DNA of 39,270 nt from Escherichia phage 285P. This document shows, one piece after another, positions 12,889-23,303 of the stretch. The translations under genes and the position numbers were made by a program. The notes beneath the pieces were generated by a model that ran no database searches, had not been told where the DNA came from, and was given only the letters and a program-made list of their open reading frames with translations. How positions within the stretch are numbered: position 1 is the stretch's first letter; the number at the start of each line of letters is the position of its first letter. Where the stretch lies: the sequence record NC_015249.1, one strand, 5' to 3'.

Positions 12889-13101
12889 ATGTTTAAATTC
12901 ATCAACACTCTTGGTAAGCTGGTAGTTAAAATGTACTTCCGTGAAGCTAAACGTCTGAACGACAAGGCACGTAAGGATGCAGAACAGGCTCAACGCTTGG
13001 CGAAACGGGCACGTCTACTGTCTGAAGATGCAAGTGCTGGCGTTACGTCTGCTGCTAAGATTGCAGCGAAAGCAACCGACCTGAACAAGTTCTTCCTGTA
13101 A
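12889..13101 (+). CDS. 4.3: gene 4.3 protein
   Basis: 70 aa (MFKFINTLGKLVVKMYFREAKRLNDKARKDA...LNKFFL), resembles T7 gp4.3 as recalled (same length). Confidence 0.7.
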   Translation: MFKFINTLGKLVVKMYFREAKRLNDKARKDAEQAQRLAKRARLLSEDASAGVTSAAKIAAKATDLNKFFL

Positions 13102-13280
13102 TGGTTACGATAACCCTTGTGCTCACTCTGATAACTGTGAGCGGACAAACAATAAGTCAAGTCCCTATCACGGCACCAAAGGCTGAGGCATACGAGATAT
13201 GCGAACAGCAAGGGCGCTCGTGGTCTAAGGACTTGATGAAGAACGGCAGGGTTTTCACTGCCAACTACAACTGTATCTAA
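13101..13280 (+). CDS. small ORF with N-terminal hydrophobic segment and two Cys (59 aa)
   Basis: Hand-translated (MVTITLVLTLITVSGQTISQ...CEQQGRS...NYNCI); start overlaps the 4.3 stop (TAATG); no obvious SD. Confidence 0.3.
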   Translation: MVTITLVLTLITVSGQTISQVPITAPKAEAYEICEQQGRSWSKDLMKNGRVFTANYNCI

Positions 13281-13294
13281 TAGGAGTACATAAC

Positions 13295-13597
13295 ATGGCT
13301 ATTAAATTCCCCGGCAACACAATCCGTCTGTCTGACACCATCGACCAGTATGCTCGTCGAGTGCACATCAACGTTCGCAATGGCAAGGTAACTCTGGTCT
13401 ACCGTTGGAAAGACCACAAGTCCACCAAGGCTCACACACAGCGTGTGACTCTGGATGATACACAGGCAGGTCGTCTGCTGGCTTCCGTTGCTGTAGCTGC
13501 TACCGTGGCTGTAGGTGAAGACAATGTTCGTCAGGTTCTGCTGGGTAAGACCGTGGAGTCTGAGGGAAACATGCTTGCGGACAAGTGTGAAGAGTAA
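13295..13597 (+). CDS. hypothetical protein (gene 4.5 position)
   Basis: 100-aa ORF with AGGAG RBS; no firm homolog recalled. Confidence 0.6.
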   Translation: MAIKFPGNTIRLSDTIDQYARRVHINVRNGKVTLVYRWKDHKSTKAHTQRVTLDDTQAGRLLASVAVAATVAVGEDNVRQVLLGKTVESEGNMLADKCEE

Positions 13598-21338: not shown

Positions 21339-21361
21339 TAATACGACTCACTATTGGGAGA
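21339..21361 (+). promoter_or_regulatory. T7-type promoter (phi10-like) TAATACGACTCACTATTGGGAGA
   Basis: Seen: only the -1 A to T difference from T7 consensus; 5' hairpin GGGAGAGACATTACGTTCTCCC follows. Confidence 0.85.
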
Positions 21362-21463
21362 GACATTACGTTCTCCCACTTTGAGTGATACACAATGAGA
21401 ACCAACTCGTTTCAAGTAGTACCTCACACATTTAAACTTTAAATTAACAGAAGGAGATTCAAC

Positions 21464-22507
21464 ATGGCTAAGATGAATGGTGGTCAGCAAATTGGTAAAG
21501 ACCAAGGTAAAGGTATGTCTGCTGGTGATAAACTGGCTCTGTTCCTGAAAGTGTTCGGTGGTGAAGTTCTGACCGCGTTTACTCGTACCTCTGTTACCAT
21601 GAACAAACACCTCGTGCGTTCCATTCAGTCCGGTAAGTCCGCGCAGTTCCCTGTGCTGGGTCGTACCAAAGCTGCTTACCTGCAACCGGGTGAGAACCTC
21701 GATGACAAACGTAAAGACATGAAGCACACTGAGCGTACCATTAACATTGATGGTCTGCTGACTGCTGACGTTCTGATTTACGACATCGAAGACGCAATGA
21801 ACCACTATGACGTGCGCTCCGAGTATACCGCACAGTTGGGTGAATCTCTTGCGATGGCTGCTGATGGCGCGGTTCTGGCTGAAATGGCTAAACTGTGTAA
21901 CCTGCCGTCTGCGTCTGATGAGAACATCGCTGGTCTCGGTAAGGCTCATGTACTGGAAGTTGGCAAGCAGTCTGAGCTTCGGGGAGACCAAGTTAAGCTG
22001 GGTCAGGCTATTATCGCACAGTTAACTCTGGCTCGTGCCAAGCTGACTGGCAACTATGTTCCGTCTGCTGACCGTGTGTTCTACACCACTCCAGACAACT
22101 ACTCTGCTATTCTGGCTGCTCTGATGCCTAACGCTGCAAACTATCAGGCTCTGATTGACCCGTCTACTGGCTCTATCCGCAACGTTATGGGCTTCGAAGT
22201 TATTGAGGTTCCGCATCTGACTGCTGGTGGTGCTGGCGAAGACCGTCCAGAAGAGGGTGCAAATCCGACTGGTCAGAAACATGCGTTCCCTGAGACTTCC
22301 TCTGGTGACACCCGTGTTGCTCTGGACAACGTTGTCGGTCTGTTCAATCACCGCTCTGCCGTTGGTACTGTTAAGCTGAAAGATATGGCACTGGAACGTG
22401 CTCGTCGAGCTAACTTCCAAGCAGACCAGATTATCGCTAAGTACGCTATGGGTCACGGTGGTCTGCGCCCTGAAGCATGTGGTGCGCTGGTTTTCAACAA
22501 GGCTTAA
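21464..22507 (+). CDS. 10A: major capsid protein 10A
   Basis: 347 aa; N-terminus MAKMNGGQQIGKDQGKG parallels the T7 gp10 N-terminus; extensive identity. Confidence 0.97.
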   Translation: MAKMNGGQQIGKDQGKGMSAGDKLALFLKVFGGEVLTAFTRTSVTMNKHLVRSIQSGKSAQFPVLGRTKAAYLQPGENLDDKRKDMKHTERTINIDGLLTADVLIYDIEDAMNHYDVRSEYTAQLGESLAMAADGAVLAEMAKLCNLPSASDENIAGLGKAHVLEVGKQSELRGDQVKLGQAIIAQLTLARAKLTGNYVPSADRVFYTTPDNYSAILAALMPNAANYQALIDPSTGSIRNVMGFEVIEVPHLTAGGAGEDRPEEGANPTGQKHAFPETSSGDTRVALDNVVGLFNHRSAVGTVKLKDMALERARRANFQADQIIAKYAMGHGGLRPEACGALVFNKA

Positions 22508-22641
22508 CTTCTCGCAAACTCGTAGGGGACACTGAGTCCCTTACTGAAGTTGAGCAAGAGCTAACGCCACAACAGAAAGCTGCCCGTACCCGTGCGGCAA
22601 ACAAGGCTCGAAAGGAAGCTGAGTTAGCTGCTACTGAATGA
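21464..22641 (+). CDS. 10B: minor capsid protein 10B via programmed -1 frameshift at GGTTTTC (22489-22495)
   Basis: Seen: slippery heptamer 4 codons before the 10A stop; -1 frame stays open for ~49 codons (…TEVEQELTPQQKAARTRAANKARKEAELAATE) to TGA at 22639-22641. Confidence 0.55.
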
Positions 22642-22651
22642 TAACTATATG

Positions 22652-22696
22652 AAACCCCTTGGGTGCCTTCACGGGTGCTTGAGGGGTTTTTTCGCT
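22652..22696 (+). terminator. T-phi-like terminator for phage RNAP (AACCCCTTGGG...GAGGGGTTTTTTCG)
   Basis: Seen: GC stem followed by T6; same position (after gene 10) and near-identical ends to T7 T-phi. Confidence 0.8.
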
Positions 22697-22712
22697 ACAA
22701 GGAGACACACTT

Positions 22713-23303
22713 ATGCGTTCCTATGAAACAACCCTAGAGACAGGTGAAGAGTTGGCTGCTGTCAATGACATCTTGGCCTCTATCGGTGAACCACCAGTAT
22801 CTACTCTGGAGGGTGACTCTAACGCCGATGTTGCCAACGCCCGTCGAGTTCTCAATAAGATTAACCGACAGATTCAGTCTAAGGGCTGGACGTTCAACAT
22901 TGAGGAAGGTCAACAGTTGGTCCCCGATGTGTTCAACGGATTGATTCCCTATATGTCTGACTACCTGTCCGTACTGTCTGAAGGAGGCGCGACCGCTTAC
23001 GTTAACCGTGGTGGTTACGTCTATGACCGGACTACAGGAACCGATGTGTTCCAGAACCCTATCACTGTGACCATCATTAAACTGAGAGAGTTCTACGAGA
23101 TGCCTGAATGCTTCCGCTTCTGGATTGTAACTAAAGCTGCCCGTCAGTTTAACAACAGGTTCTTCGGTGCACCTGAGATTGACGCTGTGTTGGCTGAAGA
23201 AGAACAGGAAGCGAAGATGCAGTGTCACGAGTATGAACTGGACTTCGGTAACTTCAACATGCTTGATGGTGATGCCTTCACTGGTGGTCTGCTGTCTCGT
23301 TAA
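22713..23303 (+). CDS. 11: tail tubular protein A
   Basis: 196 aa (T7 gp11 is 196); position. Confidence 0.9.

Follow-up and report, generated by a model that had tools for sequence, protein, structure and literature searches.

A programmed -1 ribosomal frameshift very probably yields minor capsid protein 10B in Escherichia phage 285P

Results

The gene 10 region of 285P

The window considered here, a stretch of 39,270 nt (NC_015249.1), is the Berlinvirus genome of Escherichia phage 285P, a T7-like phage. Of the whole genomes in the phage collection, that of Enterobacter phage PZJ0206 is the nearest (96.5% identity), not that of Kluyvera phage Kvp1. All features described below lie on the + strand. 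Gene 10A (21464..22507) encodes in the zero frame a major capsid protein of 347 aa (~37.1 kDa), which matches Pfam PF21703 (Gp10A-like) over residues 61-343 (E = 4.9e-107) and, in the PDB, the T7-type capsid chains 7y23 (E = 1e-173) and 2xvr (E = 3e-166). Gene 10 is driven by the phi10 phage RNA polymerase promoter at 21339..21361 (TAATACGACTCACTATTGGGAGA), a 23-mer that aligns with phi10 of T7 and has identical copies annotated as 'Kvp1 promoter phi10A' in Kvp1 and 'phi10' in BA14.

The heptamer G GTT TTC occupies 22489..22495, close to the end of the gene and in register with it (G|GTT|TTC), its two complete codons being those of Val343 and Phe344. After TTC come AAC AAG GCT and then the 10A stop codon, TAA, at 22505-22507. 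An earlier note on this DNA had pointed to the heptamer as the site of a -1 shift and to an open -1 frame beyond it, and both are present: translation from 22489 gives 50 sense codons (GFQQGLTSRKLVGDTESLTEVEQELTPQQKAARTRAANKARKEAELAATE), ending at TGA (22639-22641). Since the -1 frame across gene 10A contains 35 stops in 346 codons, we estimate the probability of a 50-codon open run arising by chance at P ~0.005. A shift at the heptamer would add 48 residues, encoded at 22495..22641 (48 codons, QQGLTSRK...AELAATE, plus TGA), giving a full 10B of 392 aa (~42.0 kDa) from join(21464..22495, 22495..22641).

The same heptamer in the same register is found in T7, Kvp1, FE44, Yepe2 and nasanit, and a review gives the shift site of T7 gene 10 as G_GU U_UUC (PMC5009743). 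G GUU UUC is an imperfect instance of the X XXY YYZ pattern, one in which re-pairing of the P-site tRNA is partial. The number of GGTTTTC sequences in the window (2, as against 5.2 expected) is unremarkable, and the second copy, at 13250, is probably there by chance.

Immediately after the extension lies the T-phi-like terminator that the earlier note had described, a G+C-rich 18-bp hairpin (22651-22690) plus a T-run, occupying 22651..22692. Its arms, AACCCCTTGGG and CTTGAGGGGTTTTTT, align with T7 T-phi, and a role in termination is predicted for it; a terminator is annotated at the equivalent place in Kvp1, BA14, FE44 and Yepe2.

Peptides from the virions of Kvp1

In Kvp1, the sequence corresponding to 22430-22712 is nucleotide-identical to that of 285P apart from a single base in the loop of the terminator, so that the two phages share heptamer, 48-residue extension, stop and terminator. 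Their 10A proteins are ~98% identical. They differ in that Kvp1 has a phi11 promoter between the terminator and gene 11, which 285P lacks. For the same sequence, the Kvp1 record says that '10B ... results from ribosomal frameshifting', and the FE44 and T7 records say likewise.

The earlier note had looked to mass spectrometry of virions for peptides across the shift junction. Such data were published in 2008 for Kvp1: SDS-PAGE combined with MALDI MS/MS found in virions a 43.6 kDa band that gave peptides specific to the -1 tail (Lingohr et al., PMC2579914), at m/z 2244.123, 2372.219 and 2692.310. The tryptic masses that we computed for the predicted 10B of 285P agree with all three values within 0.002 Da. 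The first two correspond to LVGDTESLTEVEQELTPQQK ([M+H]+ 2244.124) and KLVGDTESLTEVEQELTPQQK (2372.219), while the third fits the junction peptide YAMGHGGLRPEACGALVFQQGLTSR (...GALVF|QQGLTSR), for which 2692.308 was computed with carbamidomethyl-Cys and oxidised Met. An alternative junction, ...ALGFQQ..., would give 2577.245 unmodified, 2634.266 with carbamidomethyl-Cys, or ~2650.26 (calculated by hand) with one oxidised Met in addition, none of which fits 2692.310.

The tail of 10B

Among 25 distinct tails, including that of T7, the core motif is invariant and the linker that precedes it is unconserved. The 16 codons of the core, LTPxQKAARTRAANKA, vary at the third position in 16/16, at the first in 6/16 and at the second in 1/16, a pattern that shows selection on the -1 frame at the level of protein. 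The tails of 285P and T7 are 51% identical over 47 residues by BLASTP (E = 3e-12). The earlier note had thought the extension different from that of T7. This is true of the linker of ~22 residues; from LTP on, the core LTPxQKAARTRAANKA(RKEAELAA) is common to both phages.

The note had also called the tail helix-prone, which prediction supports: given an alignment of tails, AlphaFold2 places a helix at tail residues 27-49, with a mean pLDDT of 92 over residues 31-40, and models the preceding linker with low confidence. The tail of 10B is thus predicted to consist of a flexible or disordered linker followed by a conserved basic helix with the motif LTPQQKAARTRAANKARKEAELAA. No Pfam family matched the 285P tail, and a protein-database search with it gave 19 tiny ORFs from T7-like contigs, with no domain information. 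The PDB gave weak matches to the termini of unrelated recombinant proteins. These say nothing about function and are presumably read-through of vectors, since the 3' end of T7 gene 10, together with T-phi, is part of pET vectors. The 16 residues of the helix motif, which are strictly conserved and lie at the capsid surface, recur outside capsid genes.

At the same -1 position, relatives may carry quite different tails: a Big_2 Ig-like domain, an unassigned domain of ~90 aa or an extension of >400 aa. The idea, also from the earlier note, that the C-terminus of the minor capsid protein is a variable surface module holds for the family; between 285P and T7 only the linker has diverged.

Slip sites and extensions in relatives

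Among 47 distinct gene-10 3' ends, a long -1 extension accompanies the slippery GTT-TTY in 27/28 cases and other Val/Ile-Phe codons in 5/19 (Fisher p = 4e-7, uncorrected for phylogeny). Three of these five exceptions have ACAAAG a few codons downstream, as CACAAAG (L063, L065) or TACAAAG (L077). The +1 frame is short in nearly all cases. The tail of 285P is itself reached in relatives from several apparent slip sites: G GTT TTT; G GTT TTA AAA AAG; G GTA AAG; and A AAG adjoining the stop. In BA14, a run of seven A occupies the position equivalent to the slip site of 285P. That the same tail follows such different sites argues that its expression by shifting is maintained.

The tail does not persist everywhere. 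A nonsense codon shortens it in Yep-phi and a 1-nt insertion does so in Yepe2, so that on some hosts at least these phages can apparently do without it. The earlier note would have counted it against frameshifting if close relatives had stops in the -1 frame; these two cases provide such stops in part, but they fit a dispensable tail rather than a lack of frameshifting.

A hairpin beside the shift site

Beginning 6 nt past the heptamer, the minimum free energy fold contains a two-tier hairpin at 22502..22555 (z = -3.56), a candidate 3' stimulator of the frameshift. Its basal stem, formed by 22502-22511 with 22546-22555, has the 10A stop (22505-22507) inside; its upper stem, formed by 22522-22530 with 22536-22544, closes a 5-nt loop. 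An internal loop of 10 nt separates the tiers. The same architecture recurs in fPS-86 and JJY1, with the stems rewritten. Over an alignment that represents ~3-5 independent lineages, 98.2% of cells are paired (30-53% in slid registers) and 9/19 pairs have changed on both sides. RNAalifold independently recovers both helices.

The architecture is clear in relatives of the L014/L021/L081 type but not in most relatives with Big_2 tails, not all of which show an equivalent hairpin, and we do not propose it as a general feature of gene-10 frameshift sites. Analogous basal stems surround the 10A stop in the T7 group and also in L103 and L107, although the combined T7/Berlinvirus stem was built with arms chosen separately from the fold predicted for each group and is to that extent a biased construction. 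A covariance model of the Berlinvirus hairpin (R1) placed the T7-group sites correctly but weakly (E = 0.04-4), and the comparison is accordingly confined to the basal stem, with no claim of homology for the whole structure. Rfam gave no match at gathering score anywhere in the window and none at E <= 5 within 22400-22720. The annotated records of relatives and the literature examined, a search that did not take in the 1991 papers by Condron, contain no description of the hairpin.

Discussion

How 10B would be made

The observations are very well accounted for by a programmed -1 ribosomal frameshift on G GUU UUC within 10A that yields minor capsid protein 10B, and we consider this reading highly probable. 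Ribosomes translating 10A would sometimes slip back by one base at the heptamer, the P-site tRNA-Val and the A-site tRNA-Phe re-pairing to GGU UUU. After Phe344, reading would resume at CAA... in the -1 frame, bypassing the 10A stop four codons on, and the 48 residues added before the TGA at 22639 would give 10B, a minor subunit of the capsid. The hairpin at 22502-22555 might pause the ribosome over the heptamer and stimulate the slip, possibly jointly with the distal terminator. We infer that 285P itself makes 10B. The efficiency of the shift in T7 is ~10% (PMC1635266), and that in 285P may be of the same order.

Could the tail instead be a separate small gene, read without any frameshift from the ATG at 22477 (a 54-aa ORF, 22477-22641)? 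It is annotated as a separate small CDS in nasanit ('head protein'), Yepe2 ('gp10B') and fPS-86 ('hypothetical protein'), and in the protein database the tail is present only as ORFs of 48-69 aa. However, the ATG has no preceding Shine-Dalgarno sequence and is missing in T7 and in several Berlinvirus relatives that keep the tail (GCAGTAGG, GCTGCTGG). Moreover, the Kvp1 mass of 2692.31 is that expected of a peptide running from 10A residues 327-344 into the tail, and the band that contained it ran at 43.6 kDa, not at the ~6 kDa of a free small protein (PMC2579914). A separate gene is scarcely credible. Almost as hard to believe is that the shift occurs at the level of RNA (transcriptional slippage, reviewed in PMC5009743), the phage RNA polymerase slipping on the T-run and some mRNAs, one base short or long, then being translated normally. 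Polymerases of the T7 type do slip on homopolymer runs, the site offers TTTT, and the seven-A run of BA14 at the equivalent place is suggestive of such a process. The runs known to cause appreciable transcriptional slippage, however, are far longer than four T. Also, the register of the heptamer is G|GTT|TTC throughout and the GTT Val codon goes with the tail, a dependence on register that fits tRNA re-pairing, and a conserved hairpin at a spacing of 6 nt likewise fits a ribosomal mechanism.

It is a little easier to imagine, but still most improbable, that what is conserved past the 10A stop is RNA alone, whether as 3' UTR structure, as terminator or for the stability of the mRNA, the -1 frame being incidental and the extension functionless. 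The region 22489-22695 is indeed structured (z = -3.5), the part that encodes the linker seems to be held mainly as RNA, its stems kept while the peptide changes, and the truncated tails of Yep-phi and Yepe2 are what one might expect of a functionless extension. Against this, the pattern of variation in the 16 core codons is that of translated sequence and the peptide they encode does not vary between T7 and Berlinvirus; several different apparent slip sites lead into that peptide; and 10B protein is present in the virions of Kvp1 (PMC2579914). Ribosomal frameshifting remains much the best reading of the site.

Comparison with other frameshift sites

The -1 frameshift between 10A and 10B of T7 is an old acquaintance, reportedly described by Dunn and Studier in 1983 and by Condron, Atkins and Gesteland in 1991. 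As the earlier note had recognised, the arrangement in 285P mirrors it. In T7 the heptamer is likewise G GUU UUC, set in the same register five codons before the 10A stop. The capsid protein, the tail core LTPxQ(K/E)AARTRAANKARKEAELAA and the T-phi terminator are homologous, and an analogous basal stem, beginning 5 nt after the heptamer, encloses the 10A stop of T7. The two phages differ in the linker, which in 285P is shorter and unrelated in sequence (48 residues are added in all, as against 53 in T7); in the inner part of the hairpin, a simple two-tier stem-loop in 285P and a predicted branched fold in T7; and in the spacing between the shift site and the CCCC of the terminator, ~160 nt in 285P, where the CCCC lies at 22655-22658, and >200 nt in T7.

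In T3 and phiYeO3-12, as in 285P, the homologous capsid gene has a -1 frameshift close to its end, and the minor capsid protein that results is extended at its C-terminus, on the surface. Their slip site, however, is C CCA AAG (Lys codons), and their tail is a Big_2 Ig-like domain (PF02368, E = 8e-16) in place of the short basic helix of 285P, a contrast already drawn in the literature between the tails of T3 and T7 (PMC5009743). The dnaX gene of E. coli resembles 285P in its general layout, with a stable stem-loop ~6 nt past a slippery heptamer, and BA14, a close relative of 285P, bears a heptamer of the dnaX type, A AAA AAG, at the slip position. In contrast to dnaX, 285P has G GUU UUC as its heptamer and no visible Shine-Dalgarno-like stimulator upstream, and its shifted product is the longer one, where that of dnaX is the shorter. 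The sequences of the two sites are unrelated, and that of 285P matches no Rfam family.

Is the hairpin a stimulator?

The spacing of the hairpin makes it plausible that it acts as a local stimulator in 285P. That a two-tier hairpin starting 5-6 nt past the heptamer is a real local stimulator of gene-10 frameshifting across phages of the T7 type is more doubtful, and we put it forward as a tentative suggestion only. Experiments with T7 have implicated not a local hairpin but a distant CCCC, in the terminator >200 nt downstream (reviewed in PMC5009743), and because those data point to a distant element, a stimulatory role for 22502-22555 may be wrong or partial. In search of a partner for the CCCC, G-runs were found downstream of the shift site in many relatives, but not in all and at no fixed place, and no pairing was supported. 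The authors who described Kvp1 put the shift at 'TTTTCA', saw 'no typical slippage site' and sought a pseudoknot at the terminator (PMC2579914); the hairpin beside the shift site does not figure in their account.

Implications

Since the 10A/10B frameshift of T7-like phages was already known, the existence of 10B is nothing new. For annotation, the join given above is the correct gene model for 10B, and it bears on many deposited relatives, in which the tail is listed as a free-standing protein of ~50 aa called 'head protein', 'capsid and scaffold protein' or 'hypothetical protein'. Beyond this, the region offers two modest leads: the conserved hairpin beside the shift site and the strictly conserved helix motif of 16 residues. 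If the hairpin is indeed a stimulator, then the linker of 10B would be constrained mainly as RNA and less as peptide, and a local element would be added to the unexplained long-range effect of the terminator reported for T7.

The gene 10 region and its shift site

With 39,270 bases, the window covers nearly the full genome of a T7-like podophage, genus Berlinvirus (Studiervirinae). The first 25 kb is 96.5% identical to Enterobacter phage PZJ0206 over 96% of the query and 93-95% identical to BSP161, PhiV-1, nasanit, and BA14, and in the region of gene 10 its identity to nasanit, vB_SEqdws-315, PZJ0206, CarlSpitteler, BSP161, S523, and Kvp1 is 96-99.5%. The ORF of gene 10A (21464-22507, 347 aa) encodes a T7-type major capsid protein, matching Pfam PF21703 (E = 4.9e-107) and solved T7-type capsid chains (E = 1e-173). 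Those chains are themselves of 10A length (345-347 aa), and their alignments to the longer product 10B stop at residue 345. The leader of gene 10 is longer by about 67 nt in nasanit and BA14, through an insertion right after the phi10 promoter (window position 21375-21376) that neither the window nor Kvp1 nor T7 has.

The slippery heptamer GGTTTTC occupies 22489-22495 and is read as G GTT TTC, after which the zero frame continues AAC AAG GCT TAA. From 22489 the -1 frame reads GFQQGLTSRKLVGDTESLTEVEQELTPQQKAARTRAANKARKEAELAATE up to the TGA at 22639-22641, and a strong hairpin with a T-run at 22651-22692 aligns with T-phi, the T7 terminator at the end of gene 10. Re-reading the sequence bore out every coordinate of the earlier note, as well as its peptide, and its main interpretation, a programmed -1 frameshift giving 10B, is correct: the 10A/10B arrangement is already known and has been shown experimentally for the identical sequence in phage Kvp1.

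The heptamer occurs twice in the window where 5.2 occurrences are expected, a count that by itself is uninformative. The -1 frame of gene 10A contains 35 stops in 346 codons, and from that density the chance of 50 open codons is estimated at about 0.005. The sole other GGTTTTC (13250-13256) is also in the register G GTT TTC, 8 codons upstream of the stop of a 59-aa ORF (13101-13280) between genes 4.3 and 4.5, and the -1 frame is stop-free from there into the ATG of gene 4.5 (the next ORF, 13295-13597). As a second shift site it is probably a product of chance, since a 1-nt insertion in the spacer of BA14 breaks the frame link to gene 4.5. In Kvp1 a phi11 promoter is annotated between the terminator and gene 11 (L001 1700-1722), where the window has just a short spacer containing a ribosome-binding site (22693-22712).

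Protein evidence from an identical sequence

Over 22430-22712 the window and Kluyvera phage Kvp1 differ at a single base, located in the loop of the terminator, and the Kvp1 record carries the annotation "10B ... results from ribosomal frameshifting". Virions of Kvp1 show a 43.6 kDa band above gp10, and its tryptic digest yielded three peptides specific to the shift product (m/z 2244.123, 2372.219, and 2692.310; residues 327-372) (PMC2579914). For 10B of the window, the computed [M+H]+ is 2244.124 for residues 353-372, 2372.219 for residues 352-372, and, with Cys carbamidomethylated and Met oxidised, 2692.308 for residues 327-351, YAMGHGGLRPEACGALVFQQGLTSR. This third peptide crosses the junction and fits Val-Phe/Gln, that is, a shift after UUC has been decoded. 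A junction reading ...ALGFQQ... would give 2577.245, 2634.266, or (by hand, with oxidised Met) about 2650.26, none of which fits. Since the Kvp1 stretch is identical and its junction peptide reported, the virion mass spectrometry that had been proposed as a check was in fact done earlier on the same sequence (PMC2579914). The Kvp1 authors saw no typical slippery site and considered a possible pseudoknot 144 bp downstream, a location that is that of the terminator; their paper makes no mention of a hairpin next to the shift site (PMC2579914).

Translation of the tail in T7 and other relatives

The heptamer and register of T7 are identical to those of the window. Its gene 10 site was named G_GU U_UUC in a 2016 review of recoding (PMC5009743), and about 10% of translations shift (PMC1635266). 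The extension had been thought unlike that of T7; this holds for its first ~22 residues, the linker, but not from LTP onward, where the tail reads LTPQQKAARTRAANKARKEAELAATE in the window and LTPAQEAARTRAANKARKEAELAAATAEQ in T7, nearly the same. From a 20-sequence alignment of the tail, AlphaFold2 predicts a single helix at tail residues 27-49 (mean pLDDT 92 over residues 31-40), preceded by a linker of low confidence. Pfam has no family over the tail. The tail end (AANKARKEAELAA...) weakly matches PDB entries (e.g., 8rcx_A, 4pg4_A, and 6kus_A), in most cases at the very C-terminus of an unrelated recombinant protein. The matches probably stem from read-through into the vector, because pET vectors contain this part of T7 gene 10 together with T-phi.

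Eighty related loci were taken from viral contigs and 75 analysed. The +1 frame is closed 7-70 nt from the 10A stop in nearly all of the 75, and in the loci with a slippery site the -1 frame always remains open, over 125-278 nt. Among 47 distinct gene-10 3' ends with Val/Ile-Phe at the shift position, a long -1 extension accompanies slippery GTT-TTY in 27 of 28 cases and non-slippery synonymous codons (GTC, GTG, ATC) in 5 of 19 (Fisher p = 4e-7, without phylogenetic correction). In three of those five, ACAAAG follows within a few codons (CACAAAG in L063 and L065, TACAAAG in L077). In other relatives the same tail is entered from other apparent slip sites: G GTT TTT in ETEP21B (L087 170-176), G GTT TTA AAA AAG, containing the dnaX-type heptamer A AAA AAG, in BA14 (L002 1556-1575), G GTA AAG in L103, and A AAG immediately before the stop in L134. 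That shift-prone sites are swapped while the tail is kept argues that frameshift expression itself is maintained.

Could the tail be conserved purely at the level of RNA? This may well apply to the part encoding the linker, but it is excluded for the 16-codon core, LTPxQKAARTRAANKA, since in a codon alignment of 25 distinct T7-type tails the third position varies in 16/16 codons and the second in 1/16. First positions vary in 6/16, several of the changes being synonymous changes of Leu or Arg. Judged by its codons, the core bears the signature of purifying selection on the -1-frame protein. Another reading takes the tail as a separate small gene starting from the ATG at 22477, and several records annotate it so; however, no ribosome-binding site precedes that ATG, T7 and several Berlinviruses have the tail but not the ATG, and a peptide across the junction exists (Kvp1; PMC2579914). 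Transcriptional slippage at the site is unlikely, as the run is of four T only and slippage would leave the register and the codon dependence unexplained. Many GenBank and metagenome calls present homologues of 22477-22641 as free-standing ORFs of 48-69 aa, labelled "head protein", "capsid and scaffold protein", or "hypothetical protein" and not joined to gene 10.

A conserved hairpin beside the shift site

The RNA downstream of the heptamer is predicted to fold into a two-tier hairpin, with a spacer of 6 nt between the two (z = -3.56 vs shuffles). A basal stem of 10 bp (22502-22511 with 22546-22555) holds the 10A stop UAA in its 5' arm, and an internal loop of 10 nt separates it from an upper stem of 9 bp with a 5-nt loop (22522-22530 with 22536-22544). 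Yersinia phage fPS-86 (Helsettvirus, ~81% identity here) and Pectobacterium phage JJY1 (~68% identity) are predicted to share this geometry, with compensatory changes in the basal stem and an upper stem wholly rewritten (GUAGGGGAC/GUCCCUUAC in the window, GGGGCUGAC/GUUGGCUCC in fPS-86, and GGGGUCACC/GGUGGCCUC in JJY1). Over 12 distinct sequences, 98.2% of cells pair, vs 30-53% in slid registers, and 9/19 pairs are changed on both sides, values that 0/500 shuffles reached. RNAalifold recovered both helices unaided. L103 and L107 have the same plan, with the 3' arm in Leu-Thr-Pro codons and the upper stem capped by UUCG.

An analogous basal stem, GGAGUAAUGC(U) with (A)GUGUUACUUC, is predicted in the T7 group; it starts 5 nt after the heptamer and encloses UAA. 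When the basal arms of the two groups are aligned, both sides differ in 8/11 pairs and pairing holds in 91.7% of cells, figures biased by construction, as the alignment was built on the folds predicted for each group separately. Most relatives with Big_2 tails show no evident equivalent of the hairpin, and Rfam has no matching family in the whole window or in 22400-22720.

The 3' stimulators of -1 frameshifting usually stand 5-9 nt from the slippery site as a stable helix. By this spacing, the sole basis of the functional claim, the hairpin at 22502-22555 is a candidate 3' frameshift stimulator. In T7, CCCC in the terminator >200 nt downstream is involved, with an unexplained effect (PMC5009743); no conserved partner for it was found among the relatives' sequences. 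The conserved hairpin is the sole element here that might be new, and it is a lead rather than a finding in itself.

Variation of the tail

The tail is apparently dispensable in some lineages. In Yep-phi (L010 ~2285-2292) a G-to-T change produces TAG in the -1 frame, truncating the tail, and also disrupts one pair of the basal stem. In Yepe2 (L005 1492-1617) a 1-nt insertion ends the tail after RTRAANKGS, and the 10A stop is changed from TAA to CAA, making 10A six codons longer. Both phages with truncated tails infect Yersinia pestis. Between the stop of 10B and the terminator, PYps50T (L091 332-496) has an extra 54-codon ORF that brings a Shine-Dalgarno sequence of its own, found also in matches H58 and H59 (Y. 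pestis AKS phages) and absent from the window.

The motif (L)(T/S)PxQ(K/R)AARTRAANKA appears as well in small ORFs without capsid similarity on metagenome contigs (L123, L125, L130, L137, L141, L142, L144, and L147). The search pattern specified AARTRAANKA only, and the preceding LTPxQK is present nonetheless; that it accompanies AARTRAANKA, unsearched, outside capsid genes suggests a widespread short basic-helix motif.

The idea of the capsid C-terminus as a variable module was borne out at the level of the family, where other domains occupy the same -1 position: Big_2 Ig-like domains in other T7-like phages (PF02368, E = 8e-16 to 3e-19) and a domain of ~90 residues without assignment in further relatives. 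The contrast of T3 (Ig-like) with T7 (not Ig-like) is already in a review (PMC5009743). In L053 (1233-2462) and L067, from one T7-like lineage, G GTT TTT is followed by a -1 frame open for >400 codons, past the end of the locus, which encodes first Big_2 and then ~320 residues that match nothing in Pfam at E <= 0.01; as a capsid extension it would be very large.
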